Virus record (IMG/VR): IMGVR_UViG_3300025267_000006
Coordinates: 32,001 to 96,000 of that record
Direction: 5' to 3' (one strand)
Length of the DNA stretch: 64,000 nt
Origin: a virus
Lineage: Duplodnaviria; Caudoviricetes
The position numbers and the translations under genes are program-made. Numbering within the stretch: position 1 is the stretch's first letter; each line of letters starts with the position of its first letter. Under the pieces are notes generated by a model, which did not search any database, was not told the DNA's origin, and saw only the letters and a list, made by a program, of their open reading frames with translations. Below are positions 5,602-52,421 of the stretch, in pieces.

Positions 5602-6657
5602 ATGACAATCAAGAACAACTATCCAAATGGTGAATGTCCTGACTGCTACGAGAACATTCCTGACAATGCATCGCATGGAGATGGATGCAGTAACTGTGGT
5701 CACGTTTTCTACTCTTCTGGCAGCAAATTCACTTTCATAGACCTATGTGCTGGGATCGGCGGATTCCGCATTGGCCTACAGGCTCTTGGTGGAGAGTGTG
5801 TCTACACTGCTGAGTGGAACAAGTTCGCTAGATACACCTACGAGACTAATTTCGGTGGCACTGTCGAGGGCCACGATATTAACGAGATCATCCCCAGTGA
5901 AGTCCCAGACCACGATATCCTGACATGTGGATTCCCATGTGTCTCGTTCTCTAATGCTGGGGCCAAGAAGGGATTTGAAGACCCTAGAACAGAGGTATTC
6001 TGGTCAACTATGGACATCGTAGCTGAGAAGCGTCCAAAGATAGTCATCTTTGAGAACGTGCGAGGTGTCCTCAAGTACAGAGACATCATCGAACAATCGT
6101 TCAATGAACGTGGCTATGACCTGCATACAGAACTTCTTGTCAGTAAAGACTTTGGAGTGCCTCAAAATCGAGTACGGGCCTTTCTGGTAGGCATTGATAG
6201 AAGTCTGAATATCAGCGAACAATTCCAATTTCCAGGCACTGGCTTATTTGGCAATAGCTACCCTAGCAGAACTCTGGGAGACATACTTCAAGGCACTCTC
6301 GGCAATGGAATTGAGGACAAGTATGAAGTCTCCGATAAGCGTTGGGGAACCATGCAGGAACACAAGGCGAGACATGCCAACAAAGGCAATGGTTATGGTT
6401 TCCAACTCAAAACTGCAACTGAAGTTGCACCCACGATTCAACATAGGTATTACAAGGATGGTTCCGATTGCCTAATTGATGATGGCGTAGGTAGGAATCC
6501 AAGACGATTGACTCCCAGAGAGGTCGCAAGAGTCATGGGATTCTCAGATGAATATGCAATCCCTGTTAGCGACACCCAAGCGTACATGCAGTTTGGAAAT
6601 GCAGTATGCCCCCCTGTAGTCGAGTCACTTGGAAGGCAAATAGTTCCACTGATTTGA
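5602..6657 (+). CDS. DNA (cytosine-5) methyltransferase with N-terminal Zn ribbon
   Basis: motifs FIDLCAGIGG, GFPC, ENV, QNRVR, RRLTPRE, GNAV. Confidence 0.95.
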   Translation: MTIKNNYPNGECPDCYENIPDNASHGDGCSNCGHVFYSSGSKFTFIDLCAGIGGFRIGLQALGGECVYTAEWNKFARYTYETNFGGTVEGHDINEIIPSEVPDHDILTCGFPCVSFSNAGAKKGFEDPRTEVFWSTMDIVAEKRPKIVIFENVRGVLKYRDIIEQSFNERGYDLHTELLVSKDFGVPQNRVRAFLVGIDRSLNISEQFQFPGTGLFGNSYPSRTLGDILQGTLGNGIEDKYEVSDKRWGTMQEHKARHANKGNGYGFQLKTATEVAPTIQHRYYKDGSDCLIDDGVGRNPRRLTPREVARVMGFSDEYAIPVSDTQAYMQFGNAVCPPVVESLGRQIVPLI

Positions 6658-6704: not shown

Positions 6705-8911
6705 ATGGATAATTATGAAGTGTCCGTCACAAAGGTATTTGGAGTAGCGGTTACACATACTGCCACCGTCCAAGCAAACGACTTGGCTGAAGCCCAGGAC
6801 AATGCTAAAGATATTGTTGGATGGACCGAAGTTTATAACTCCATAACTCAGAGCAATATGAGCGACTCTTATGAGTTTGCTGAGATTGTAGTAGATGGAA
6901 AGGTTATGGAAGACACGTTCTTCTCCAACCACCTTCTCAGGGAAGCCGTGGAAATCAATAAGGAAAACCAATGCCAGCCCCCTCTATTAGAGCCACGATA
7001 GACGTGAATAGCTACGGTGCTTGACACGTATAGATTTATATGATAAATTAAAATATGAGGTTGAGGAGAACGTGATGACAGTGATTCATAAGGGGGGGCC
7101 ACATGAAGCGTGGAAATACCCCGACACCAAGCTCCGATGGGCCTTGTGTGCCGAGGGCGCAAACTTTGACAAAGTTCTCGTTACAGACGGTACGAAATGG
7201 GTGACATCGTATGCTCACAATGAAGTGACATGTAAGCGATGTGTACGGATTCTCACTTCAAGAGGCACCTACTAGCCTCAGAGGCCGAAAAAGGAACCAC
7301 AACATGAGTATCTCAATCGAACACAATAGACAGACTGACAACGTAAACATGAAGATGACGACTGAAGAATTCTTGGGAATGTTTTGGGTCATTATGGGTA
7401 AGGTACGTCCAGATGAATTAAACAGTCTAGATATTGGCGCAAGGTCGTTAAGAGAAGCCATTGGACAATCCATGGACTTACTTGATGGTTTTGAAGATGA
7501 GGCCCACCAAGCCTACATTAAAGAAGCTATCGCAGAAGTTGAAAATATCATCAATCAAAATTTGGATGGTTAGCATACTGATAATGAACAAACCCGAACA
7601 TATAGCAGAGGTAGAAAAAACAGCCGTTAAAGTTCGCAGAACTCATCGAACTTGGCTTGCCTCTGAGACTGCCCTACAACGAACCATAGCTAAATTTGTA
7701 ACTGTAATGAAGAGAGCGAGATCATAGAAAAATATGGAATACCTCGGTATAGCAGTAATAATTGTTGGCCTCATGATTTTCGGTACTGGATGGCTACAGT
7801 ACAACCTAAAGTTACATGCAATTTTTCTTTTTGTGTATTGGTTATGGGCAATGGGATCAAGCGCATCTAACGGAACCTCTTATGATTTAGCCTATTTGTT
7901 ACCCCTGATAATAACTGCTCACTACACCCTGCATTGGGTACTAAAACAAGGAAAGAATTATGGAAAAAACATACCGTATCCAACTACGCACAGAGATTTA
8001 CGGGACATACATTCTCCAGATGAAAAATCTCTCTGAAACTAATGACGATGAAGTAATGGATGCAGTCATCGATAAGCTAGATAAAGAATTAAAAAAGAAA
8101 GAACCCGGAGAGGATTTCCACTTAGAAGATTCATTCACTGAATTCGGTGGCTTTATGAGTATTGAAGAAGAGACTCCTTCTGGAAATTACATTCAATTAT
8201 TGGGGCAAAAACATGAGTAAAAGAAATAACAAACGTAGAGCAGGGTACTTTACGGGGGTACGGACGGGAATCAATCAGAAGCCCCTGGTGGGTGCAAGAG
8301 CAGATCGAAAGCCCCCCATAGATTCCAGGGTTGAGTGGAACGACGCTGCTCTGTTGGACGGCGACATAGCAGCAGCCAATGAAAAAATGGAAGAACTTAA
8401 AAATCAGTTTGCTGAATTGAGTACACAAGCAAAAAAAGAATTAAGGGGAACGACGCTGGATCAACAACTGAATACCTTACGGGATCGGGCGACAGAGTTT
8501 GAATCCGAAAGTAAGAGTTGGATACTAAGAGAGGGGGAGGAAACTCTCGCAGAGTTTTTTGAGGCATCGAGCGATGGGGACGACAATCAAAAACGGTTAG
8601 CTACACTTTATAGTGGCTTAATTGATTTCTACGGCAGAGAAGAAGCTGCCACTTTAATGGAACAATGGGTTAGTGAACATAGAAACTATTTCGATTTCCA
8701 AATACATAGACCAAAAGAACAGCCAGGTACAGATAACGACAATTTAGCCCCGTCTATGCAGTCGATAGATAACGTAGCTTTAGCAATAAAAGCATTCATA
8801 CTTTCTCGTATCGCATACCGAATGAAGTCTGGTGGGGATCATCAAACCATAAATATACGAGTCACTATGGACGATGGAATTGAGCGTAAAAATAGAACAT
8901 CATATGAATAA
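6705..8911 (+). CDS. cluster of hypothetical early genes (6705-7001, ~7072-7275, 7303-7573, 7583-7727, 7734-8036 membrane protein, 8020-8220, 8213-8911)
   Basis: closely packed ORFs; 7734-8036 has hydrophobic helices; starts adjusted by RBS or overlap. Confidence 0.5.
7017..7049 (+). promoter_or_regulatory. promoter GTGC-TTGACA-N17-TAAATT
   Basis: family match. Confidence 0.7.
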
Positions 8912-10022
8912 ACATATATCACTATTCTCAGGAGCCGGGGGACTGGACATTGGCCTAGCTAAAGCTGGCCTTGGAACCACATTCCGTATAGAAAAAGACA
9001 GGGATTGTTACAACACTCTTGAAGCCAACTCCTCTATTAATATCCTTATAGGCAGTGATGCCCAATGGGGTACTAAGAATATCCTGGGAGAAGTAAAAGA
9101 AAATCTACCATACATTCATCGAATTTCGAAAAGACGTAAGTTAGATTTTGACCTGATAAGTGGTGGCCCACCGTGCCAATCATTCTCTACGGCTGGCAAA
9201 CGTCAGGCTATGGAAGATGACCGTGGAAAGCTCATCATGGACTTCTTAGAGTACGTGAGAGTTCTCCAGCCTAGGTTCTTTGTCATGGAAAATGTCAGAG
9301 GACTTACATCAGCCTCTATAAAGCATCGACCTCTGAATAAACGTGGTAATGGTTACCCACCACTATCTATTGATGAAAAACCGGGAAGTCTGTTGAACAC
9401 TCGTATACTTCCAGCTATGGAACCATACCAAGTTATGTATGGAGTGTTGAATGCTCTGGACTATGGAAGTCCCCAGCATCGAGAACGTCTGATCTTTATA
9501 GGCAGCAGAGATGGGGAACTTCCCAATGTGCCGATAAAAGAATTTATAGTTCCTACCCACAGTGAACCTGTAACCCTAATGGATGCCATAGGTGATATTC
9601 AAAAAGATCCCGGGGAATACCAAGAGTACAGCCTAGCTAGGAAAGCTGTTTATGAATGCATCCCTGCTGGTAAGAACTGGAGATTTGTTCGTGATAGCGA
9701 TCAGTTCGATAAAGACGAAGTAAAGAAAATCATGGGCGGAGCATATAACTCTTCTGGAGGACGAGTAGGATTTTGGAGAAGGCTGTCTTTCGATAAGTGG
9801 TCACCAACCCTGACTACAAGCCCTATCCAAAAGGCGACAGGACTCTGTCATCCAGTACAGACCAGGCCACTCAGCATCAAAGAGTATGCTCGGATTCAAG
9901 GATTCCCAGACTCTTGGGAATTCAAGGGATCATTGAACTCTCGATACAAACAAATTGGAAATGCAGTGCCAATCCCCTTGGGTGAAGCCATAGGTAAATC
10001 TATAAAAGGACTAACAGGATAG
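8904..10022 (+). CDS. second DNA (cytosine-5) methyltransferase, Sau96I/SinI-like (GGNCC/GGWCC-type) target-recognition region
   Basis: SLFSGAGG, GGPPCQSFS, ENV, QHRER, GNAV; specificity inferred from the GKNWR...GGR.GFWRRL...SPTLTTSP.QK.T..CHP segment. Confidence 0.9.
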   Translation: MNKHISLFSGAGGLDIGLAKAGLGTTFRIEKDRDCYNTLEANSSINILIGSDAQWGTKNILGEVKENLPYIHRISKRRKLDFDLISGGPPCQSFSTAGKRQAMEDDRGKLIMDFLEYVRVLQPRFFVMENVRGLTSASIKHRPLNKRGNGYPPLSIDEKPGSLLNTRILPAMEPYQVMYGVLNALDYGSPQHRERLIFIGSRDGELPNVPIKEFIVPTHSEPVTLMDAIGDIQKDPGEYQEYSLARKAVYECIPAGKNWRFVRDSDQFDKDEVKKIMGGAYNSSGGRVGFWRRLSFDKWSPTLTTSPIQKATGLCHPVQTRPLSIKEYARIQGFPDSWEFKGSLNSRYKQIGNAVPIPLGEAIGKSIKGLTG

Positions 10023-25012: not shown

Positions 25013-26620
25013 TTACTTCTTTCCAACAAGTTTAATTAAATCTTCCACCTCGGCGGCAACTGGATAATCTTCAGACAATAAAAACATGGATTCATCTATC
25101 TCATTCAACACCTTGGATTCGATGCTGGGAGTTGGGTCGCCGCTCTTCTCCAAAAGAACCCCATCTTTACGCTCTGGACGGGGTACTTCATCTAATTTTT
25201 GAATTTCTGTCTCATCTTCTTCCCCAGTCTCATCTGGAAGGGAGGATTTAACTGAACGAATAAAAGTTTCTAATTTCTTAGCATCTTCGCTGAGGTCTCC
25301 AGCCCCCTTAGAATCAGCTTTCATTAATTCAAAGAATCTATTCAAATCTCCCCTTAACTCCAAAACCAATTTCTTTATTTCATCTACATCTGGATCCTGC
25401 TTCATTTCATCAAGAAACTTATGATTGGCTATTAGATTGGAAACCCTAGAAATAGTATTTTTATTGAATCCAAGCCTAGCAAGAGTCTTTTCTGTTAACT
25501 TTGATCCAGGATCGGCATGCCCGGGGAAGTTACCATTAACCTTCTCAATTGCACCCTTGCCAACATCGTGGAACAATAAAGCTAGGTTTAATATCAAATC
25601 AGTAGATTTAGCTGCTTTGAGGGAACGTAGAGTGTGGTCCCATACATCTTTACGCCTACCCTTTTGCTTCAGCCCCCTCAACTTATTCAAATCAGAGCAT
25701 ATATATTGAATAATATCGTAGGTGGATAAAAATCTAAGCCCTATCCAAGGCTTCTCGGTCTTGAGTATCTTTTTTAACTCCCACCCAATTCTGTCTGGTT
25801 TTAAATTACCCACTAATTCTGATGCATCCGGCATAGCCGCAAGTAAGGAACCGTGGGGCTTAACAGGAAAATCAGATAGGAACCTAGCTGCCCTAAGAAT
25901 TCGAGAGGAATCTTCAGTAAAGGATTCTAAGCTACGATCTGCGGGAGTGCGAAGTACCTTAGCTTTAATGTCATCCAAACCGTGGTAAGGATCATAAAAT
26001 TGACCAGTTACAGATTGAGCAATGGCATTGATTGTAAAATCTCTTTGCCTGAGATTGTCCAACAAACCATCTGCAGTAGTAGAGATCATATCTACTTTTA
26101 AATCACCGACGTGGAATTTCAAACGAGCAAATGCATTCGAATGCTCGGAATACTTGATACCCAAATTATCGAAAATCTGTTTTACATTGGCAAGGGGAGT
26201 AAGAGATATAATGTCTACATCTTTAGATACTTTTTTAAAATACTTATCTCGAATATAGCCACCAACAAAATAAATAGGAAGGTAGTTACCTAAAGTACGG
26301 ATCCAGTCAGTAGCTACCTTACGTTGGTTTAATCTTTGTGCTACCTCCGGGTTGACCCAGGCAGTTCGTGCCCTCTCAAAAGTCCTGCCACCTCGATGCA
26401 CTAGCTCATATATTTTAGTCTGAACTTTTCCAGACTCTCCTGGGTGCGTTAACCGCTGAGTCTCTGCGGGTGCTCTTTCCTCAACCCTAAAAGATTCAGC
26501 ACGAGGATCCTCACCCGCCTCTACTCGCTCTATAGAACGAACAGGATCAGCCTCTTGCTTAGCAAGCCAATAATCCAGTTTTAACAACATCTCCTGCTCA
26601 GGGAGAAATTTGTTAGACAT
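25013..26620 (-). CDS. cca: class II tRNA nucleotidyltransferase (CCA family) with HD domain and ~100-aa N-terminal extension
   Basis: VGGYIRD, DVD, RDFTINA, EDSSRILRAARF, HDVGK. Confidence 0.9.
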   Translation of the reverse strand: MSNKFLPEQEMLLKLDYWLAKQEADPVRSIERVEAGEDPRAESFRVEERAPAETQRLTHPGESGKVQTKIYELVHRGGRTFERARTAWVNPEVAQRLNQRKVATDWIRTLGNYLPIYFVGGYIRDKYFKKVSKDVDIISLTPLANVKQIFDNLGIKYSEHSNAFARLKFHVGDLKVDMISTTADGLLDNLRQRDFTINAIAQSVTGQFYDPYHGLDDIKAKVLRTPADRSLESFTEDSSRILRAARFLSDFPVKPHGSLLAAMPDASELVGNLKPDRIGWELKKILKTEKPWIGLRFLSTYDIIQYICSDLNKLRGLKQKGRRKDVWDHTLRSLKAAKSTDLILNLALLFHDVGKGAIEKVNGNFPGHADPGSKLTEKTLARLGFNKNTISRVSNLIANHKFLDEMKQDPDVDEIKKLVLELRGDLNRFFELMKADSKGAGDLSEDAKKLETFIRSVKSSLPDETGEEDETEIQKLDEVPRPERKDGVLLEKSGDPTPSIESKVLNEIDESMFLLSEDYPVAAEVEDLIKLVGKK

Positions 26621-34162: not shown

Positions 34163-35998
34163 TTACTCTTCTTCCGCCTCTTCCTCTTCATCTGACCACT
34201 TTTCAGTAGCAGACTCATCAAGAAGACCACCTTCCAAAGGACCCGGAGGTGGTGGAGGGGGAGGACCAAGTGGAGGGGCCGCTCCTCCAGCTTCCATACC
34301 AGGCATGGGCGGTGCTCCAGCCATAGCCGCCATTGGATCTCCACCTGGCGGAGCCGCCGCCTTCTTATATGTAAATCGTATGTCCTTGCCAGTATCCTTC
34401 TGAGGCTCAAATCCAAGTTGCTGCATCTGAGTAGCAATCTCTATGCGCTGCTTCTCCATAGCAAGGTTAATATCTTCAGTCTCTTCTCTTGGAGGTGCCA
34501 ATCCTATAGTCCAATCGTCAACACCTAATTGTTTTAACAAGTTAGGCATTATCGTATCGTTGAATATACTCTGATACGACTCAATCAAAGCATCATGCAT
34601 AGAAGTTTGAGCCGATTCTTTTGCTAAACCTCCACCAGCACTCTGAGCATCTCCAGTGAATAGAGGTGTTACCCCCCACAGCATAGCTATACGCTCTCGT
34701 ATTTCCTGACGAACTGGAAGATAGTCCAATTCCTGGAACGTATACGCCAACTTAACAAAGTCAGTCTTACCACGGTTATTCCGTGCTGAAGCCGCAACCC
34801 ATGGGAATGTGTTGGGATCGTTCAACATTTGAGTTTTGATTCTCTCTATTTCAACTTCGAGAGAATCTGGATCATCCGTATACGTAATTATCAATCCCGG
34901 TGGGATACGCCTTTCATACCAATACCTATATAGAGTCCTGTCGGCCCCAACCAGAGACAAAACTTTTTCAAATACTGTTAATACTGGGGAATATCCATAA
35001 GTTTTAGAGGGGCTGAAGAATGAAGCATGTAATATCTCATCCTTGGTGTAATACCTATACCTGCCTCTCCAATAGTATCTATACATAGCTGGCAACAATA
35101 TGCCATTGCAGAGGAATCCCTCATCGTTAATAGCTACGCATTGACCGGGACTGGTATGTGTTTGCTGCTCACGGTGTATTGGACAGATAAAATGAGATCT
35201 TTCAGGAAGCCCATCTTTTCTATCTATGTCATATTCAGTCAGAGCAGGATGCAATCGAGTAATCTCAAATATTCTCTGACTCTCTACCTCCCCAGTCGCC
35301 CTATCTAGAATGTATTCCTTGTTAAGAAGTAAGAATCCGTCATCCGCTATCAAGACATCCTGTATAAATTCTATGAACACCGACTGCATTGTTTGATGGA
35401 AACTATTTGCATCTGTTTTCAGATCATCAAAAATCTTCTGCTGTGCCATATCGGGCACTCTCATTGGAGCCGTAACTCTCTTACCGTTCTCATCTCTCTT
35501 ATATTTTTTATAATTCTTAGTGGTATAACTACCAGTTTTTTCGTCTATAACAACTTGCTCTTGTATTTCATACAAGAAGCACTTATCACAATTTTCTTGG
35601 TCTTCGTCGGTAGATTCATTGCCACATTGAACACATTTACGTGCAAATTTCTGTACCCAGTTACTAAATCCCCGCCTAAACACTTCTCTTTGAATACTAA
35701 GTACAACAGAACGTATCTCAGTAACCTGGAAAGCAAGAACGAACAGGTCCTGAAGAATAGATCTGCGATAAATAAACTGTTGGCGTACCCAATCTTGGAT
35801 TATTGCGTCTAATCCAAGAGGAGACATACGCCCAGAAGACGCTGATCCTTGAGCGGCCTCTGCAGACTTAGTTAGCGCATCTAGTGTGCCTAACACGCCC
35901 TGCATTTTGTTGTAATTCTCGACCCCAGGAACGGGTTCAGAACCGTTTCTGCCGTTCTGGTTAGAGAATATATTTGCCAGATTGTCTATTATGCCCAT
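34163..35998 (-). CDS. portal protein
   Basis: follows terL; D.L..DDGF, EILH, YGYSP, PPGLI, IA..WGVTP pattern; Pro/Gly-rich acidic tail. Confidence 0.85.
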   Translation of the reverse strand: MGIIDNLANIFSNQNGRNGSEPVPGVENYNKMQGVLGTLDALTKSAEAAQGSASSGRMSPLGLDAIIQDWVRQQFIYRRSILQDLFVLAFQVTEIRSVVLSIQREVFRRGFSNWVQKFARKCVQCGNESTDEDQENCDKCFLYEIQEQVVIDEKTGSYTTKNYKKYKRDENGKRVTAPMRVPDMAQQKIFDDLKTDANSFHQTMQSVFIEFIQDVLIADDGFLLLNKEYILDRATGEVESQRIFEITRLHPALTEYDIDRKDGLPERSHFICPIHREQQTHTSPGQCVAINDEGFLCNGILLPAMYRYYWRGRYRYYTKDEILHASFFSPSKTYGYSPVLTVFEKVLSLVGADRTLYRYWYERRIPPGLIITYTDDPDSLEVEIERIKTQMLNDPNTFPWVAASARNNRGKTDFVKLAYTFQELDYLPVRQEIRERIAMLWGVTPLFTGDAQSAGGGLAKESAQTSMHDALIESYQSIFNDTIMPNLLKQLGVDDWTIGLAPPREETEDINLAMEKQRIEIATQMQQLGFEPQKDTGKDIRFTYKKAAAPPGGDPMAAMAGAPPMPGMEAGGAAPPLGPPPPPPPGPLEGGLLDESATEKWSDEEEEAEEE

Positions 35999-43940: not shown

Positions 43941-46900
43941 AATAATTCCCTACGCTGGTCGAGGTTCCCCAACTGTACCCTTCACGGGTTTCTCATCCTC
44001 ATCGCTACTTGGAGCCGCAGCTAGTAATTCTGCTATACGTTCTGGGGAAGGAGTTCCCACTACGGATTGTTTTAAACTCTCTGCCAACTGTTTATCTCCT
44101 TGCTTCCTTCTCTCCACTAACTGATGCTCTGTAAGTTTGGGTGCTTTAGTAGGAAAGGTAGAACTTTCCTCTGTATCAGCATAAGGATCAATAGACAATT
44201 TATCATCTGATGACAACTCTGCCCAGAGCCTAGGATGAACACTTCCCGACTCAGGTTCCCATCTTCTAGCTAAGCTCATAGCGGTCAATATTGATTCACG
44301 TTTCGAAGGATTCATTCTATGAATACCCTCAGCGTCAAAGTGTCCATATTGATGATCAATCTTATCAACGTCACTCATAGTCTCCTGATTATATTCCTCT
44401 ATCATCTGAGCTACAGAATCTCTATAATCCCATACCTGTGTCTTCCTATTAGGAGAATTAATTCCAAGAACCTCATTCTCATTACCAAGAAAGGCATAAG
44501 ATCCAAAATGAGTGAAAATATCATCTTTAGATATCTCAGATTTAAGAACTACAATTTCATCCGCCTTATCGCCAACCCATCTGTCAAAAGTCGATGATGG
44601 CTCAGCCTTCGGATTCATCTCATCTTGATACTTCTCATAAGAGGTAGACTCAAGCAACCAATCATTATCAGAAGCCTTGGCTGAAAATTTAAAAGCTACA
44701 TAAGGTTTAATTGTCCAACTCGTAAGGGGATTGGATTGAAGCTCCACTTCCTCACCCAAATAAGATTTTTCTCTCACTTCGTCTTTTAATCTAGCTCTCC
44801 GATATAATTTATCCCTCCCCTTCTCACCCACCGCTGTTATCTCACCATATTTACCCTCACGGGTAAATTTTCTAGATGGATCCGCTATCTCTCCTACAGT
44901 AGTACCCCTGTAAACAGTCAAAGTGTCCGTATCAGGAAAAGCCAAGTCCAGCATCCACCTACTCAAAGCTTTATGAACTCTTACATACTCATCAATATCC
45001 TCTTGAGTAGGTTTTGCCCCAAGTTCCTCTTCCTCCCACTTAGATTCCAACAGTTGTTCAGCATTATCTTTCGCCAGAGACAGACCTCTATCATCTTTGG
45101 CTCCCTGAAAAAATTGAACATCCCCATCAAACTGACGACCCACAGATTCCTGAATAGCCCAGGAGAAATAACCGCCAGTAGAATCAGCTTCCCAATCATC
45201 CTTAGCCAACCTATGAATGGTTGAGAATTTAGTATTTGAATATAACTCATCCACCACACGAACCAATCTTGAGGTTGGGTCTGAACTCTCTAAATTCTGT
45301 AACCCACTTAAAACTTGACCATCAAATGTAGAATTTGGGAATGCTTTCCTGAATCCATCTTTACCCCCCTCTGGCATGGAAAGATTCTCAGAAAAATAAT
45401 TTATTAAATCATTCCCCAGATAACTAGCAGCTTTATATCTCAGGAAAGCTTGCTGAGCTATCGTAGGATTTGAATGCTCCATAAGAGGTAAAGCTTCTTG
45501 GCTGTTATATCCATTAACCCACTTATTCCTACGAGTAAAAGAAGGAAAAAGCCTTTCTTCATATAACTTTTCCAAAAAGAAATCCCTTTGTTCCTCCCTT
45601 CCCTTATCCCCAAACAGATCTTGTGCAGTTCTAAGTACGGTTCCTATTTCCCCTTCATGCAAAACAGGTTCAGGTTTCGTCCATTTACCTCTTCTTGCCG
45701 CAGTTGGATCTAATTTTATATCCCTTTCAATCATCTGCTTGTCAACGGTATCCCAATCCACCTCGTACTGGCCCGGAGTATATGAAGTTGGGATTTCTAT
45801 AGGAGTTTGTCTAACCTGAGTCGGTACAGCCTCACCTAAATCATTCCCGTCCTGATCCACTTCAGTCCCGATAATATCAAAACGACCTTTCCTTGGTCCT
45901 TTATGTCTACCTGTAGGACTATATTTACGTTTCTCTGGTGGGACATACCCTGTTGTCCACCCCTCAGACCCTTCTCCCTGCTTAGCCAAATACTCTGTGG
46001 CAGCGAGAAGTGTCATAAGTTCTGGAAGATCGTTAGATTTCTTAATTTCCTTCTTTATAGATAAGTCTGCATGTATCGCTACTTCACGAGTTCCAAGAAA
46101 ATCCCCTGCCGTATCAACACGAACCAAAGCATTATCTGGAACTGATTCCCTCGATACCTCACTTATACCCACTGTATCTGGAGTTGCATCACGGAAATTA
46201 ACTAGAGGATCACCCACAAATAAAGGGTTTTGTACTAGAGGAAACCACTGTTTAGTATCCTCCTCGGTCATTTCAACTGCTATATCGAAGTAGTCATCGA
46301 GGAAATCCGCAATGTCCGCTCTATTCCTCTGATACAAAGTTACGAAATGCCTAGTCTCTCTTCCTGCAGGAGGATCACTTTCGATATCTATTAGAGGCTC
46401 CAATGCTTGCTCATACAAAGCGGTATGAATGTCGTCAGAATCAATCTCTTCATCTATTTCCGCTAAACCCTTATCTGCCGCCGCTTGTAATCTACTATGA
46501 ATGTATTGAGCATCCTCATCAACATACTTATTCAATAACTCTTTTATCTTCACCCAATCACTATCTGTATAGTCCGTAAGCTCAGTAGGCACACCTAAAC
46601 GTGCTATCTCACCCGCACGGAGCATTTCTTTTTGCATAAATTTGGCATGTTCTGGGTCAGTAGTAAAATAGGCTGCATTGTTTAGTTCTTTTGTTTGTGG
46701 GCCACCTAGCCCATGTACCTGCTCCTCATCCCCCCTTAATGCCAAAATCGTCCCAGATGATTGTATTTTTTGGTGATGGGGAGAAACATGATACAAAACA
46801 TCGGGTAATTCAGCCTTAGCGATCTTCCTACCGTTCCCAGGGGATAAAGAATAGTCATTTGTTACGTGAACTTTAGGTTCAACAGAAGGAGCTTCTTCAG

Positions 46901-49220
46901 CCTGTTGAGGCTTAGGCTCAAAACTCTCCCCCTCAAACACCCAATCTTTACCGTACTCTAGCTGAGTACGTTTTGTGACTAATACGTTTGCCTCTCCAGC
47001 CTCTCCAACTTCGGGAGGTATGTTATATTGCTGATCAGGTAAATACGCATCTCCCTCCTCAGTACGTATTTTTATGGTCTGTGCGTCAGCAGCATCTAAT
47101 CCATAATCATCTTGTAACTGCTGTCTCCAAAAATCTGGATCACCTACATGTATGCCTCTAAGCCCGGATGGCCCATCTGCATATCCCACACTGTCTAAAT
47201 CATATACTTCTAAAGTATCTCCAGCCTTTGACCCCCATATAACACGAGCAACTTCCTCTCCCTCATCAGCCATACTCCAATCATACTCAATATTATCTTC
47301 AATCCACTCTCGTTCTTCTGCTTCTGAAGAAATAACAGCATCTTCCGGCTGTGGAAGGATGTTACCCTGCTGAGGGGGCATCGGAAGTTCGCTTATATCA
47401 TGAGGGCCAGGAGGTTGTGCCTGTGAAAGTTGACCTAAGGAATCACCATGTTCATTTACTTCTGTACCTATGATAGAAAATCTGCCGCCTCTAGGACCCG
47501 TATGGGTGCCTTCCATATGGTAGAAACGTTTTTCAGGTGGAACAAATCCTGAAGTCCACTCTTGGGACGGAGTTATTCCCTGTTTAGATAAATGCTCTGT
47601 AGCAAATTGATACTTATTTCTAACGTAATCCAAAGCTTCATCAGCAGAAGCTATCTCTCCCTCTTCCTGCTGCCCTTGAACATCACGAAGGATGTCTCCA
47701 AGCTCACGCCCTTCTTTAAAGCCAAGACCCTTCAGATCATTGCCTGTTAGAAGGGGAGCTATCTTCCCCTCTTTTAATCCACCAGCCTCAGAAACCTGCT
47801 TAATTCGATCCCGGAACCAAACATTCTCCTCATTTCCATGCTCAGTCATCGAACCATCAGGATTTTTAACTAATCTTCCACTTGCATCGGCCTCAGACAC
47901 AGCAGAAAGAAGATTTAGGTACTCAGTCCCATGCTTATTGATTAATCGCCTGAAAGCGGCATCTGAAGCCCCGTCTCGATGATATTGAAGAGGCTTGAGG
48001 TGATTCTCAACTAGAGAGGGAACTGTGGCTAAGATGTCCCTGTCATTAGTTAACTTGCCCAGGAATTCCTCTGTTATGGGAACACCCGCTGCCTCATGAC
48101 CGATAGCCCTACCATCTGAGGTAGTGGTCTCAGGCTTACCCAGGTCATGACATAACGCAGCCAGCATGATAATGGTTTTATCTTTTTCATCTGGAAAACG
48201 TTGGATAATCTCTGCTGCTTTATCCAGAGTCATCTTAGTGTGAATAAATACATCACCTTCAGCGTGGTAATCACTACGTTGGTGAGTATCCTTCAGTGCA
48301 GAGATTTCTGAGAACTGGGTATCCAGCACTCCCATATCATCCAGTGCCTGTATACCTGTAGATGGGGTAGGGGACTTCAATAATAACTTTTCGAATTCCC
48401 CAAAAACCCGCTCATTAGATATCTCAGACAAATCCATCGAACGAGCCAGTTCCTGGGTAGATGGATCTATAGAAAAATCAAACCGAGAAGCAAACTGTGC
48501 AGCCCTGTAAACACGGAGTGGATCCTCAACAAAGGTTTCCGGGCTTACATGTTTGATACGTTTCGCTTCTAAATCCTGTATGCCCCCAAAAAAATCCAAC
48601 ACTTTGTCATTTTTATAATCGTACATCAACGCATTGATCGTAAAATCTCTACGTCTAGCCGCTAATTCTGGAGATAAATTAGGGTTAGGCTCCACATCAA
48701 AATCGGTATGCTTATCTCCAACCTTAGTCTCAGTCCTAGGTAGGGAGATATCAAAATCCCCAACTTTGAATACACCGTAGATCTTGCCTACCTGATTCTG
48801 CTTGCCCCCCAAATCCTTTTGGACAATGTCTGATAGCTCATCGATGGTCAAACCATAAACTTCAATATCTACGTCTTTACTTGGTACTCCGAGTAATGCA
48901 TCTCTAACGCCCCCACCGACCACATAGGGATCGCCGTACTGAGATAGGGTGTTTAGAACATGCTGAGCTTCGGAATCCCTCTCTATCCAGGCCCGTACAC
49001 TTTCATTCTCCATGCCCGGAGCCAGAGTGGGAACGGGCTGACCAAGTGGATTTCCATGAGGATCTGTCTCTACCCCAATAATAGAAAAACGACCACCCCT
49101 GGGTCCTGTATGTTTCCCTTCAGGGTGGTAGTAGCGTTTTTCTGGGGGGACGTGAGAAGTTATCCCCTGCTTATATAGATACTCTGTAGAGGCAAGAAGG
49201 GTCAGAATCTCAGATAGTCT
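41518..49220 (-). repeat. five dispersed in-frame copies of a ~60-70-codon leader module (approx. 49035-49220, 47431-47603, 45832-46044, 43626-43832, 41518-41735)
   Basis: protein alignment by eye: (SNDLPELMTLLA)xEYLxKQ...VPPEKR..H.GP.xGRF.IIG.E.D..G..LG; copy 2 lacks the first helix, copy 5 is the most diverged. Confidence 0.95.
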
Positions 49221-49238
49221 ATATTTTTCTTGAGTCAT
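43950..49238 (-). CDS. ~1762-aa modular protein: leader + CCA-adding/HD + leader + ART-like + leader + ART-like
   Basis: VGGGVRD, DVD, RRDFTINA, EDPLR, ERVFGE, HDLGK; LYHVS..YFTTD..E; VYRG..SWT..ENE; start MTQEK in an ATGA overlap with the upstream stop. Confidence 0.85.
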   Translation of the reverse strand: MTQEKYRLSEILTLLASTEYLYKQGITSHVPPEKRYYHPEGKHTGPRGGRFSIIGVETDPHGNPLGQPVPTLAPGMENESVRAWIERDSEAQHVLNTLSQYGDPYVVGGGVRDALLGVPSKDVDIEVYGLTIDELSDIVQKDLGGKQNQVGKIYGVFKVGDFDISLPRTETKVGDKHTDFDVEPNPNLSPELAARRRDFTINALMYDYKNDKVLDFFGGIQDLEAKRIKHVSPETFVEDPLRVYRAAQFASRFDFSIDPSTQELARSMDLSEISNERVFGEFEKLLLKSPTPSTGIQALDDMGVLDTQFSEISALKDTHQRSDYHAEGDVFIHTKMTLDKAAEIIQRFPDEKDKTIIMLAALCHDLGKPETTTSDGRAIGHEAAGVPITEEFLGKLTNDRDILATVPSLVENHLKPLQYHRDGASDAAFRRLINKHGTEYLNLLSAVSEADASGRLVKNPDGSMTEHGNEENVWFRDRIKQVSEAGGLKEGKIAPLLTGNDLKGLGFKEGRELGDILRDVQGQQEEGEIASADEALDYVRNKYQFATEHLSKQGITPSQEWTSGFVPPEKRFYHMEGTHTGPRGGRFSIIGTEVNEHGDSLGQLSQAQPPGPHDISELPMPPQQGNILPQPEDAVISSEAEEREWIEDNIEYDWSMADEGEEVARVIWGSKAGDTLEVYDLDSVGYADGPSGLRGIHVGDPDFWRQQLQDDYGLDAADAQTIKIRTEEGDAYLPDQQYNIPPEVGEAGEANVLVTKRTQLEYGKDWVFEGESFEPKPQQAEEAPSVEPKVHVTNDYSLSPGNGRKIAKAELPDVLYHVSPHHQKIQSSGTILALRGDEEQVHGLGGPQTKELNNAAYFTTDPEHAKFMQKEMLRAGEIARLGVPTELTDYTDSDWVKIKELLNKYVDEDAQYIHSRLQAAADKGLAEIDEEIDSDDIHTALYEQALEPLIDIESDPPAGRETRHFVTLYQRNRADIADFLDDYFDIAVEMTEEDTKQWFPLVQNPLFVGDPLVNFRDATPDTVGISEVSRESVPDNALVRVDTAGDFLGTREVAIHADLSIKKEIKKSNDLPELMTLLAATEYLAKQGEGSEGWTTGYVPPEKRKYSPTGRHKGPRKGRFDIIGTEVDQDGNDLGEAVPTQVRQTPIEIPTSYTPGQYEVDWDTVDKQMIERDIKLDPTAARRGKWTKPEPVLHEGEIGTVLRTAQDLFGDKGREEQRDFFLEKLYEERLFPSFTRRNKWVNGYNSQEALPLMEHSNPTIAQQAFLRYKAASYLGNDLINYFSENLSMPEGGKDGFRKAFPNSTFDGQVLSGLQNLESSDPTSRLVRVVDELYSNTKFSTIHRLAKDDWEADSTGGYFSWAIQESVGRQFDGDVQFFQGAKDDRGLSLAKDNAEQLLESKWEEEELGAKPTQEDIDEYVRVHKALSRWMLDLAFPDTDTLTVYRGTTVGEIADPSRKFTREGKYGEITAVGEKGRDKLYRRARLKDEVREKSYLGEEVELQSNPLTSWTIKPYVAFKFSAKASDNDWLLESTSYEKYQDEMNPKAEPSSTFDRWVGDKADEIVVLKSEISKDDIFTHFGSYAFLGNENEVLGINSPNRKTQVWDYRDSVAQMIEEYNQETMSDVDKIDHQYGHFDAEGIHRMNPSKRESILTAMSLARRWEPESGSVHPRLWAELSSDDKLSIDPYADTEESSTFPTKAPKLTEHQLVERRKQGDKQLAESLKQSVVGTPSPERIAELLAAAPSSDEDEKPVKGTVGEPRPA

Positions 49239-49468
49239 AGCCCATATGTATTGCAAGCAGCCTCAAGTTTTTGGGGACTGTAGCCAACAATAAACTCATT
49301 TCCTATGCGAACTACTGGTGTTGACCTGTACCCCAAATCTCGCAGACGTGCACCAGCATCCATATCCACAGAAATGTTAAATTCAGTAAAAGAGATTCCC
49401 TTGCCCGAAAGCCACGCTTTCGTCATGTGGCAGGGACCTCAACCCATACTTGTATATATCTCTACCAT
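49235..49468 (-). CDS. nrdH: NrdH/glutaredoxin-like redoxin with in-frame TGA in a UxxC motif (probable selenoprotein, 77 aa)
   Basis: MVEIYTSMG-TGA-GPCHMTKAWL...STPVV.IG...IVGY; start ATG overlaps the upstream TGA. Confidence 0.85.
49395..49438 (-). promoter_or_regulatory. bacterial SECIS-like hairpin immediately 3' of the UGA
   Basis: UCCCU-GCCAC...C-GAAA-G...GUGGC...AGGGA; apical loop begins 17 nt after UGA. Confidence 0.6.
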
Positions 49469-50134
49469 CAACTCTTCTTCTTTCTAGTAGTTGATTTACG
49501 ATTCAATTTTGAACTGGCTTTTTTAGCATTAGCTCTCTTCTTCTTTGGTGGAGCAGCAGGTGGAGGAGTTGGAGTATAATTCTCTGCTGCTTCCCTATCG
49601 GCCTCAGCAGCCGTCTCCAGTGCTATGTTTATTTCATCAGCAGAAGCAACAGATTGGGGCGTAAACTCTACAGTACTGGGCGTAGATGATGTGGAAGTAG
49701 GAACATCAGTATCTGTAGAAATCGTAACAACACCCGCCGAGGTAGCAGTGGTGGTAGCTACAGTAACATCTGAAACCAGATCATCTCCATCAGACGAACA
49801 GACGCATACCCCATCCACACAACACTCACTTACCGGGGGATCTTTCTGAAAAAGTTTAGTTATAGAACTGAGTAATCCCATTGTCTAACCCCTTAAAATA
49901 GATGCTTTAGATCTGCCCTGTTTTTGGATTCCTAAAAAAAGTTTTCCAAGACGTGTACTCTTTTGGCACATCCCACGGTATAGCTCCTAATTCATCTTTA
50001 GACTTATTCCAACCATCTAACCTTTTAGCAATGCAATATCCCGCTGCCGCAACCATAACTACTACTATAGCACTACTAACGGCAACTGAAGCTTTTTTAT
50101 TTCTTAACATATCAATTACAAGCAGAATATCCAC
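49468..50134 (-). CDS. two hypothetical proteins (49468-49881 Thr/Ser-rich with basic tail; 49907-~50110 TM protein)
   Basis: ORFs between nrdJ and nrdH. Confidence 0.55.
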
Positions 50135-52421
50135 ATGAATAGCATTTCATGCAACCTTCTTCCTGCACCATAGAATCGCTATCGCAATCTGGACACTCCA
50201 CCCTATCCTCCGACATAAAAATAGGCTCTACACTCTCTTGGAAACTATGTTGAACATCAGTGCTGCTTTGAACCTTATCAGACACCTGATCAAGTACCCA
50301 AGCAATTGCGTCAGGCGTGGATCGTATCAATCTGCCTTTATGATATACAGGTTTATCTGAATTAATTCCTCTCAACTGCTTAGCTAAATCAGGGGCAGGT
50401 ACACCATGCTGTAACGCCGTAGAGATTACTCTACCCAAAGCCTCTATCTGTGCATTTGTGCTGGCCCCACTCTTCCCTACATTAGCGAATAACTCCACAA
50501 GTCTATTCTCATGGAAACTTAAATTGACGTACATATTTCCATGCCCTGTAGGTACTTTCCAAGTCTGACCATCCAAAACCTCAGGTCTATCAAAATTAAC
50601 CGATACTTGAATAGGCAAAAGCCCATCTGTATCCGACGCACCTATATTAAGCTCTGTAGATACAAGTACCTCTTTCTGTCTAGATCCATTTCGGTAGACA
50701 GTGATGCCCTTACACCCAGAAGACCAAGCTAATCTATACGCCTTGTCTACGTCCTCCTCAGAGGACTCAAAAGGCATATTTATAGTCTTGGAGATCCCAC
50801 TATCAACATGATGCTGCCAAATTGACTGCATTTTTACATGCCATTCAGGAGTAATATCATTAGAAGTGCGAAAATGATTTTTTCTATCATTTGGAACAAA
50901 ATCAATCAATGCCTTACCCGATCCAAGATATTTATCTACATCCAACCCGTCAGGTACATAATCTAATAAATATTTATTTATATAATATAACTCTGTATTT
51001 TCAAGCTGAGAAGACATATTGTGCTTCTTATAGGAAAGAGAAAAATGAGGCTCTATACCTGATGAAGCATCAGCAATCATACTTATGGTTCCAGTAGGGG
51101 CAATGGAAAGCCTCCAGGCATTTCTCATATAATCCCATTTGCCCCCATTCTTCTTATTCAGTGTAGATTCATCAAAAGCGGGGAAATTGCCCTTTAATTT
51201 ACCCAAACGAGAACTTTCCTTGTCAGCAGTATCTTTAAGATTGCTAGCAATCAAATTTCCGAGTTCAAGAGCCTCTTCTGAATCATATGGAATTCCCAAC
51301 TTAGTAAGTAAATCAGCCCACCCCATAACTCCCAGACCTATCTTTCGAGTAAGCTTGTTCATCTCACGAGTCTTATCGGTGGGATGATTATTAGCATCAA
51401 CCACATTATCTAGTAGACGAACACTGAGCTTTACAGTTTCATCGAATCTACTACTATCAAAACCATAAGAACCTCCCTCATTTTCTAAATAGAAATTTCC
51501 TAAATTAATACTCCCTAAGTTGCAAGATTCCCCAGATAAAAGAGGCTGCTCCCCACAAGGATTAGTGGCATTTATTCTGCCAATCTGTGGAGTAGTATTG
51601 TCTTCGTTAATCCTATCTAACCAGACCATGCCCGGTTCTCCATTTTTCCAGGCACCAGAAACAATCTTGTTGAATAAATCACGAGCCTTCATAGATTTTC
51701 CCGGTTGTTTACGATCAGCATCAAGCTGATCCTCATAATATCTATTCTTATCTAGAGGCCAGGTAAAGTTTATATATTGATCATTCTTCACTGCTTCCAT
51801 GAAATTCGAATCAGCCCCAACGGATATGTTGAAATTATCTATACGGCCTTCAACATTCTTACAAGTTATAAACTCTTCTATATCTGGATGGTAAACACTC
51901 ATGATAGCCATATGGGCACCAGCACGTTTACCGCCCTGGGTGATAAGATTGCCTACTTCAGAAAGAACACGAAGAACGGCTATGGGTCCACAAGCAGCCC
52001 CCTGGGTGGTAGTAATTGGTCTACCTTTAGGCCGAATGCCGCTCAAAGCAAACCCAACTCCACCACCAAACTTTTCAATAAAAGCCTGATCCTTGATAGT
52101 AGTAGTGATGCCCTCCATGGAATCATCTATGTCCAAAACATAGCAAGCACTCAAAGTACCTTGGCCTGTACCAGCGTTCATCAACGTAGGGGAGTTCGGC
52201 ACAAAATCCAAACTCCACATTAATTCGAAGAATGACTTCTCTAATTCACGTATCTCCTTGCCTGATACACGATAATTACTCTCTACCTCAGATAGACATT
52301 TTGATACACGTGAAAACATTTTCTCTGGAGACTCCGTCTCCTCACCGTCTTTAAGAAGATATCTTTTCTCCAATACCGAAACCGCATTCTCCGTAAAATT
52401 GCCAGTAGTACCAACAGTCAT
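50112..52421 (-). CDS. nrdJ: class II (adenosylcobalamin-dependent) ribonucleotide reductase with C-terminal TSCPD-like and Zn-ribbon region
   Basis: PNSPTLMNAG, SAC, TNPCGEQPL, CNLGS, APTGTIS, KGITVYR, C-terminal CPDC..EGC.KC.SCGYS.C. Confidence 0.92.
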   Translation of the reverse strand: MTVGTTGNFTENAVSVLEKRYLLKDGEETESPEKMFSRVSKCLSEVESNYRVSGKEIRELEKSFFELMWSLDFVPNSPTLMNAGTGQGTLSACYVLDIDDSMEGITTTIKDQAFIEKFGGGVGFALSGIRPKGRPITTTQGAACGPIAVLRVLSEVGNLITQGGKRAGAHMAIMSVYHPDIEEFITCKNVEGRIDNFNISVGADSNFMEAVKNDQYINFTWPLDKNRYYEDQLDADRKQPGKSMKARDLFNKIVSGAWKNGEPGMVWLDRINEDNTTPQIGRINATNPCGEQPLLSGESCNLGSINLGNFYLENEGGSYGFDSSRFDETVKLSVRLLDNVVDANNHPTDKTREMNKLTRKIGLGVMGWADLLTKLGIPYDSEEALELGNLIASNLKDTADKESSRLGKLKGNFPAFDESTLNKKNGGKWDYMRNAWRLSIAPTGTISMIADASSGIEPHFSLSYKKHNMSSQLENTELYYINKYLLDYVPDGLDVDKYLGSGKALIDFVPNDRKNHFRTSNDITPEWHVKMQSIWQHHVDSGISKTINMPFESSEEDVDKAYRLAWSSGCKGITVYRNGSRQKEVLVSTELNIGASDTDGLLPIQVSVNFDRPEVLDGQTWKVPTGHGNMYVNLSFHENRLVELFANVGKSGASTNAQIEALGRVISTALQHGVPAPDLAKQLRGINSDKPVYHKGRLIRSTPDAIAWVLDQVSDKVQSSTDVQHSFQESVEPIFMSEDRVECPDCDSDSMVQEEGCMKCYSCGYSACN

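Follow-up and report, generated by a model that had tools for sequence, protein, structure and literature searches.

A probable selenoprotein gene for a glutaredoxin-like redoxin near a class II ribonucleotide reductase gene in a marine double-stranded DNA phage

Main finding

A stretch of 64,000 nucleotides (nt) from the virus record IMGVR_UViG_3300025267_000006 of IMG/VR (positions 32,001 to 96,000 of that record), here called the window, carries a small redoxin gene on its minus strand with an in-frame TGA at codon 10. We read it as a selenoprotein gene of a marine double-stranded DNA phage, in which the TGA is probably decoded by SelB-dependent insertion of selenocysteine (Sec, U) as the first residue of a U-G-P-C active site, and in which the most likely task of the redoxin is to serve NrdJ, the ribonucleotide reductase (RNR) of the same phage. 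The probability of this reading, taken as a whole, is put at roughly 0.82. An original prediction for this stretch had proposed that the phage encodes, near nrdJ, a UxxC selenoprotein resembling glutaredoxin and that a hairpin of the selenocysteine insertion sequence (SECIS) type goes with it, and this core held in all tests that were run.

Coordinates refer to the window throughout, unless stated otherwise. The window lies in a record of 105,383 base pairs (bp) with a CheckV completeness of 69%.

Coding frame of the redoxin gene

Under translation table 11 the redoxin is reported as an open reading frame (ORF) of 63 amino acids (aa) at 49426..49235. The frame is open further upstream, through the TGA at 49441-49439 to an ATG at 49468-49466, and translation with TGA as U gives a product of 77 aa beginning MVEIYTSMG-U-GPCH, where U-G-P-C are residues 10-13. 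This extension of the frame had been part of the original prediction, and its coordinates and sequence (ATG at 49468, TGA at 49441-49439, start of the annotated ORF at 49426) turned out to be exact. The same is true of the overlap TGATG (49470-49466), in which the first letter of the redoxin's ATG is also the last letter of the TGA (49470-49468) that ends an upstream ORF of 137 aa. At the other end of the gene, the stop codon TGA (49237-49235) overlaps the ATG (49238-49236) of a giant downstream gene in the arrangement ATGA, which suggests translational coupling of the two.

Conservation of the TGA codon

TGA was found at codon 10 in 20 of 21 homologous loci (L002-L022, with 49-94% protein identity, corresponding to 16 distinct sequences over the 72-nt region), the remaining locus, L006, having TGT. 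Five more distant loci (33-42% identity) all carry TGT or TGC at this position. A DNA-pattern scan of IMG/VR, in which TGA, TGC or TGT were allowed, returned five stretches and all five carry TGA; one of them (L033) is the same contig as L002, and the other four are new contigs representing two further genes. Among the protein-database relatives of the phage redoxin (n = 13), 12 start at codon 15, just past the TGA, and one is full length with CGPC.

With TGT in L006 and CGPC in the protein P0003, the family forms a Sec/Cys pair. Both carry CGPC at the same codon, which places the TGA at the attacking Cys of the CxxC motif, as had been proposed. The original prediction had pointed to homologues alternating between Cys and TGA at codon 10 as a check, and to close homologues all having Cys and no conserved hairpin as the contrary outcome. 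The alternation was found, and the close homologues retain both the TGA and, as described below, the hairpin. The Cys variant L006 (1449-1520) is the single one in the phage clade and its hairpin is identical letter for letter, pointing to either a polymorphism or a recent change from Sec to Cys.

Codon usage indicates that purifying selection acts at the protein level on the nine codons preceding the TGA, and that these are hence translated. In 18 distinct coding sequences Thr6, Ser7 and Gly9 are invariant, yet they are written with 3, 6 and 3 different codons, respectively. A pseudogene or a 63-aa remnant, with a disabling TGA and an incidental hairpin, would agree with the gene callers, which report the 63-aa ORF only, but is very improbable: the same TGA recurs in loci with as little as 49% identity, across three viral lineages and throughout a large cellular family, the upstream codons are selected, and the gene still overlaps its neighbours at both its start and its stop.

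A sequencing or assembly error, turning TGT or TGC into TGA, would require one changed base only, and L006 does have TGT. We give this explanation almost no weight, as the TGA is present in many independent contigs of different data sets, and as the contigs of four sequencing runs over 49100-49600 have no alternative letter at 49439-49441. Within this set, a short contig (X14 record 7) bridges the TGA codon with more than 31 letters on either side. The DNA itself may stem from runs X7 and X10, whose contigs are near-identical. The contigs of run X15 cover the stretch in part, X15 record 11 stopping 3 nt past the TGA without bridging the codon.

Several other contigs of runs X7, X14 and X15 match only positions 49405-49444, a segment of 40 nt that runs from the UGA through the hairpin, and are divergent to its left and right. 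Depth is higher in some of them than in the phage contig (46.4 and 32.7 in X15). We read this segment, consisting of the active site and the putative SECIS element, as a DNA-level conservation island among otherwise different genes of the same samples.

All six frames of the 105-kb record were scanned for open frames containing UxxC or CxxU. This produced 14 raw hits, and by eye the redoxin alone looked protein-like. No relative was found when viral contigs were searched with the single redoxin protein; an alignment-based search then gave L002. Genome contigs were scanned with patterns specific to the phage clade, a scan that is uninformative on the cellular clade, and one distant relative (32%) was found in an alphaproteobacterial metagenome-assembled genome (MAG).

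The SECIS-type hairpin

A conserved hairpin, CGAAAG/CUUUCG (49422-49406), begins 16 nt after the UGA. Across 21 aligned sequences the stem is paired in 126 of 126 cells, and no indel occurs in any of the 21. At the outermost pair (columns 26-42), the 8 sequences belonging to the clade of the window have C:G, and the 13 remaining ones have U:A. The loop follows the pattern N-G-U-R-N, where the G-U at loop positions 2-3 (G33, U34) is invariant.

The main weight of the RNA argument lies, as far as these alignments go, in a freeze of synonymous sites and not in covariation. The 18 distinct coding sequences show no variation at the third positions of codons 15-18 and 20, and codon 21 is TCG or TCA only, whereas the third-position entropy is about 1-2 bits at nearly all other degenerate codons of the redoxin. 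Leu20 is thus CTT in 18/18 sequences while Leu42 is written with six codons, and Lys17 is AAA in 18/18 while Lys23 is AAG in 10 and AAA in 8.

The hairpin was compared with the bacterial SECIS model as outlined in a 2026 review of prokaryotic selenoproteomes (PMC13188914). According to the legend of Fig. 2A in that review, the loop comprises 3-9 nt and the upper stem 4-16 bp; the model further has a G in the first two loop positions, with the pattern N1-G-[G/U]-N-N2, a distance of 16-37 nt from the UGA to the apical loop and a minimum free energy of at most -7.5 kcal/mol. The conserved hairpin lies within all of these limits, having a loop of 5 nt, a stem of 6 bp (7 bp in the cellular clade), 22 nt between UGA and loop and an energy of -8.3 kcal/mol (z -2.75) for the minimal 21-nt hairpin of the window. 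The corresponding values are -8.1 in L010 and -8.0 in L036, and the 66-nt context of the window hairpin folds at -23.2. Position 2 of the loop is G, followed by U, and C1 and G5 can pair.

A SECIS-like hairpin just downstream of the TGA had been proposed from the outset, and one exists; the element named at that time, a GCCAC/GUGGC stem (49431-49427 with 49415-49411), is not the conserved one. This stem is the minimum-energy fold of an isolated 42-nt piece. It was rejected as a functional element, with 78.8% of the cells pairing, two of the five pairs broken in 9/17 sequences and no covariation. An extended lower stem, seen in the 66-nt fold and in the outer pairs given by RNAalifold, is mostly G-U, invariant or broken and is not claimed.

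Fold and family of the redoxin

For the protein analyses the U was replaced by C. Residues 2-60 of the redoxin match positions 1-60 of the 60 in the Pfam profile Glutaredoxin (PF00462), a match which spans the TGA and has an E-value of 1.5e-14 and a score of 54.4 bits, well above the gathering cut-off of 22.9. The AlphaFold2 model has a predicted local distance difference test score (pLDDT) of 96.1 and places residue 10 directly before a helix formed by residues 11-22. The best Foldseek match of this model is NrdH of M. tuberculosis (4hs1, TM-score 0.89), and two further NrdH-redoxins, 4fiw and 1h75, reach 0.85 and 0.84. Other top structural matches are the clostridial 'cGrx1' 7c10 (0.88) and a Bacillus thioredoxin-like protein. 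The best sequence match in the PDB is also 7c10, 'Dithiol cGrx1', with an E-value of 9.7e-10.

The term NrdH-redoxin, used in the original prediction, describes a resemblance and not family membership: the score with the NrdH model TIGR02194 is 60.1 bits, where 85.75 would be needed, and the active site reads U-G-P-C in place of C-V-Q-C. The models of the Uxx-star glutaredoxin-like selenoproteins (NF041212 and relatives) give 38.3 bits, below the cut-off of 66. We take the name of that family to mean that Sec lies three residues before the stop, while in the present redoxin it is residue 10 of 77.

The codon for Cys13 is TGC in 14 and TGT in 4 of the 18 distinct coding sequences. A relative with 94% identity (L003, 688-759) has U-G-F-C in place of U-G-P-C (CCC to TTC); the dipeptide between Sec and Cys is thus not strictly fixed.

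Cellular relatives and the reading of TGA as a sense codon

The distant TGA-bearing loci L010-L022 are found in a cellular context, with the 3' end of rpoC, ABC and EamA transporters, MOT1, CNNM/CorC and a zinc alcohol dehydrogenase as neighbours. The GC content of these contigs ranges from 34% (L012) to 65% (L022), so that more than one cellular lineage may be involved. A protein search with one cellular member yielded 219 proteins, on contigs of up to 3.7 Mb. Among the best 120 of the 219 (P0017-P0136), 116 have a length of 61-70 aa and 4 a length of 81-83 aa. All 8 short entries that were fetched begin with MVKVYLSRKG, just past the TGA, which means that the active site has been lost in the annotation. 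As the cellular family keeps the same UGA and hairpin, cells able to decode the element would exist in the ocean.

The source names of two abundant cellular members are Dehalococcoidia bacterium, Chloroflexi bacterium and SAR202 cluster bacterium. In agreement with this, the commonest assignment in the ESM Atlas for an RpoC fragment adjoining the cellular gene is Chloroflexota, which is a weak lead. A protein tree built from 24 rows and 76 columns left 12 of its 21 inner branches unresolved and gave long-branch warnings, so neither the donor nor the direction of transfer can be stated.

The four long entries (P0018, P0021, P0022 and P0029) have W at the Sec position. They most likely represent a TGA called as Trp by the gene caller, since their contigs are short (530-793 bp) and P0029 closely resembles the TGA-bearing L012. 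Taken at face value, the W in these four entries would speak for an alternative genetic code in which TGA is a sense codon (Trp in table 4, Gly in table 25), and stop-codon recoding does occur in some phages. Even so, we hold such a code to be even less probable than a disabled gene. TGA ends 21 of the 77 ORFs in the window, including nrdJ (where the match reaches the end of the profile), the upstream ORF and the redoxin itself. On the cellular contigs L012, L014 and L022, too, ORFs with Pfam support terminate in TGA. A search of the record for a suppressor tRNA found none. Error, pseudogene and alternative code are all poor explanations because the TGA is kept across loci, the contigs agree and TGA otherwise acts as a stop.

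Phage context and the neighbouring nrdJ gene

The window is of phage origin, as it encodes a portal protein (PHROG 18178, E 4e-41), a large terminase (PHROG 2) and replication genes comprising a family A DNA polymerase with processivity factor, a primase and a DnaB-like helicase. A UvsX-like recombinase, a RuvC-like resolvase, a Cas4-like nuclease and two tRNA nucleotidyltransferases are also present. The features of the redoxin region are collected in Table 1.

Table 1. Features of the redoxin region, in window coordinates
Feature	Coordinates	Strand	Details
Redoxin coding sequence, 77 aa, stop included	49235..49468	minus	ATG 49468-49466; Sec codon 10; stop TGA 49237-49235
Proposed Sec codon, in-frame UGA, first position of U-G-P-C	49439..49441	minus	conservation across loci
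Cys13 codon, proposed resolving cysteine of U-G-P-C	49430..49432	minus	Cys in 18/18 distinct coding sequences
Conserved SECIS-type hairpin	49406..49422	minus	arms CGAAAG 49422-49417 and CUUUCG 49411-49406; loop CGUGG 49416-49412
Upstream ORF, function unassigned, 137 aa	49468..49881	minus	no PHROG or NCBIfam match
nrdJ, adenosylcobalamin-dependent class II RNR, 769 aa	50112..52421	minus	TIGR02504 NrdJ_Z, 621.7 bits against 399.95; PHROG 84
Downstream giant gene with tRNA-nucleotidyltransferase domain	43950..49238	minus	PHROG 2244, E 3.8e-76

The redoxin gene lies 644 nt downstream of nrdJ, with two small ORFs in between, and the proposed closeness to an RNR gene was borne out together with the identity of that RNR (TIGR02504). 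An NrdJ-type RNR is found upstream of the redoxin in all four tested loci of the phage clade (L002, L005, L008 and L009), each of which has the RNR, the small ORFs, the redoxin and the giant ORF in this order. A large ORF was seen downstream of the redoxin in L002, L004, L005 and L008. Two further viral lineages carry the redoxin: in one (L035/L036) its start is separated by 9 nt from a preceding RNR with the same domain type, and in the other (L034/L037) it is located downstream of a family A polymerase gene. From this neighbourhood in viral lineages, and by analogy with the roles of NrdH-type and phage redoxins, we see about an even chance that the redoxin is the reductant of the phage NrdJ.

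The C-terminus of NrdJ (50112-50200, minus strand) forms a tail rich in Cys, CPDC … CMKC.SCG.SAC, which resembles a zinc-finger or redox tail and would be a natural docking site for a small redoxin.

Decoding of the UGA codon

A number of observations weigh against the selenoprotein reading and its link to NrdJ. The 105-kb record was searched for selA, selB and selD and contains none of them. Its sole tRNA is tRNA-Tyr, and this is also the one hit of the tRNA-Sec model (25.8 bits against a cut-off of 47). With none of these three genes and no tRNA-Sec in the record, Sec decoding must rely wholly on the host. The insertion of Sec itself is inferred from sequence. A scan of 49200-49520 with Rfam, at E-values up to 10, gave no match, and the minimal hairpin of L034 reaches only -6.7 kcal/mol, which is weaker than the limit of -7.5.

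Four of the 21 rows in the hairpin alignment came from a DNA pattern fixing most of the stem bases, so that in these rows only columns 26 and 42 and the loop positions constitute a test; the free columns still form U:A in them, in L034 together with a loop of the window type. The covariation consists of a single pair and probably of one change, and the five remaining stem pairs say nothing by themselves because they never vary. Furthermore, the hairpin sits in conserved coding sequence and its conservation is therefore partly driven by the protein. On the protein side, the best NCBIfam match, the YruB family TIGR02196, is below its cut-off (71.2 bits against 88.55), and so are both NrdH models, TIGR02194 as given above and NF007657 with 38.2 against 131. 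Finally, an RNR is near the cellular redoxin in 0/5 loci examined, and since the cellular relatives have no adjoining RNR, a role with RNR is not a property of the whole family.

The UGA might also be passed without SelB, by read-through with a near-cognate tRNA inserting Trp or Cys, or translation might terminate there and re-initiate at Met15; selenium would play no part in either. A phage record without Sec machinery, the four full-length cellular-family entries with W and an ATG that is invariant at codon 15 would all be in line with this. We nevertheless regard it as unlikely. What replaces the TGA, in one close relative and in all distant loci, is Cys and never Trp, and the W entries are probably a gene-caller artefact for the reasons given above. 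The spacing of the hairpin and its G-U loop are of the SelB type. A product started at Met15 would be without strand 1 and the whole redox motif, and a W-G-P-C protein would be without the attacking residue.

The tRNA-Tyr (GTA) has a long variable arm and is located outside the window, at positions 25886-25973 of the record (L029, 5886-5973).

Proposed mechanism

Under SelB-dependent decoding, a ribosome on the operon mRNA in a Sec-competent host would meet the UGA at codon 10. Host SelB, carrying GTP and Sec-tRNA(Sec), would bind the hairpin downstream, and Sec would be inserted in place of termination. In the product, Sec10 at the N-terminus of helix 1 would be the attacking and Cys13 the resolving residue. 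The redoxin could then return electrons to the B12-dependent NrdJ of the phage, re-reducing its Cys-rich tail at each turnover, and synthesis of deoxynucleoside triphosphates (dNTP) would thereby be sustained during infection. The redoxin itself would be recharged by a reductase of the host. Since tRNA-Sec, SelA, SelB and SelD would all be supplied by the host, the redoxin gene would work only in Sec-competent hosts.

The mechanism as such is ordinary; what would be new is the phage as carrier and the dependency on the host.

Relation to known systems

Sec-containing glutaredoxins (PF00462, UxxC) are listed among the bacterial selenoproteins in the review cited above (PMC13188914), for example in Clostridium/Alkaliphilus oremlandii. 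The phage redoxin has the Pfam family, the Sec position in UxxC and a SECIS hairpin within the coding region in common with these proteins; the difference is that it is found in phage genomes and adjoining nrdJ. The structural match 7c10, cGrx1, which we take to be the C. oremlandii selenoprotein, shares about 37% identity with it and has C-P-H-C where the redoxin has U-G-P-C, a dipeptide of the thioredoxin type. The known Sec-glutaredoxin of C. oremlandii is said to serve methionine sulfoxide reductase and not RNR, according to the title of a reference in the same review (PMC13188914).

Compared with the NrdH-redoxins (1h75, 4hs1/4f2i, 4fiw/1r7h), size and fold are similar, as is the arrangement of conserved positions, among them the C-terminal G-[FY]-x-P segment, and the role as electron donor of RNR is likely to be common to both. 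In 4hs1 the motifs are C-V-Q-C and W-S-G-F-R-P, while the redoxin has U-G-P-C and V-G-Y-S-P-Q at the aligned positions. The usual partner of NrdH is the class Ib RNR encoded by nrdEF. Here the neighbour is the class II gene nrdJ, and the active site has Sec and not Cys.

Phage redoxins, such as NrdC of T4, are well established. A tblastn search of GenBank phage records gave a match to the redoxin in 662 of 50,697 records, all below 60% identity and, among the matches listed, at most 45%. The redoxins of cultured phages (of Arthrobacter, Enterococcus and Mycobacterium) have the same fold, and several of them are annotated as 'NrdH-like glutaredoxin'. To our knowledge, none of the NrdH-like redoxins of cultured phages has been reported to contain Sec, and the searches brought up no such case.

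The chromosomal 'glutaredoxin family protein' of Dehalococcoidia/SAR202, annotated with 64-65 aa, is 49-60% identical to the redoxin and has the same TGA and the same U-G-P-C-H-M. Its hairpin has U:A in place of C:G and the loop UGUAY, and its context is cellular, without a nearby RNR. The cellular family looks like a counterpart or the source of the phage gene, and not like the same thing.

Viral selenoproteins that depend on the Sec machinery of the host are known from the glutathione peroxidase homologues of poxviruses. Those proteins belong to another family and use the eukaryotic SECIS element in the 3' untranslated region, in contrast to the bacterial in-frame hairpin of a phage described here.

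The original prediction had remarked that phage selenoproteins are rarely described. A literature search by titles and abstract openings, whose coverage leaves out most subscription journals and supplements, returned no phage-encoded selenoprotein, and titles listed for SAR202 and selenocysteine contained no report on this topic. In the review of prokaryotic selenoproteomes (PMC13188914) the words phage, virus and viral are absent. According to a survey of trace elements in the marine environment (PMC9402790), few or no viral sequences were seen in protein families beyond RNR II and two cuproproteins.

Implications

If decoded in the way proposed, the redoxin gene would represent a new kind of phage auxiliary gene, where the cis signal (UGA and hairpin) travels with the virus and the trans factors come from the host. 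It would serve as a built-in host-range marker for an abundant group of uncultured marine phages, and it would link selenium to viral nucleotide synthesis in the deep ocean. The gene also points to a systematic annotation error, since most of the phage genes, and likewise most members of the 219-protein cellular family, are called as fragments of 61-70 aa without the active site.

A wider reading is more speculative, and as a whole we consider it doubtful. Deep-ocean phages of this kind might infect Sec-using Chloroflexota of the SAR202/Dehalococcoidia type, which would be the source of the redoxin and its hairpin or share them with the phages. As part of the same reading, the dNTP supply would depend on two trace elements, with NrdJ requiring cobalt and its reductant requiring selenium. 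The Sec-UGA, being situated in an operon whose genes overlap from start to stop, could in addition act as a checkpoint, which would tie the expression of the giant gene to the selenium status of the host and limit productive infection to Sec-competent hosts.

Other features of the window

Homologues of the portal protein (34163-35998, minus strand) are frequent in marine data, with at least 553 at E-values of 1e-20 or better among 8,000 scored, and their contigs reach about 200 kb. The few named ones are in MAGs of Pacearchaeota, Flammeovirgaceae and Nanoarchaeota and are probably mis-binned phage contigs. As these MAG labels are mutually inconsistent, the portal homologues give no host signal.

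The product of the giant gene downstream of the redoxin has 1768 aa and contains three copies of a module of about 50 aa (…KQG…PPEKR.Y…G.H.GPR.GRF.IIG.E…), besides long stretches without any family match. The second tRNA-nucleotidyltransferase gene is located at 25013-26620 (minus strand); both are of the CCA-adding type. Two DNA methyltransferase genes (PHROG 116), at 5602-6657 and 8874-10022 on the plus strand, lie within about 3 kb of each other.

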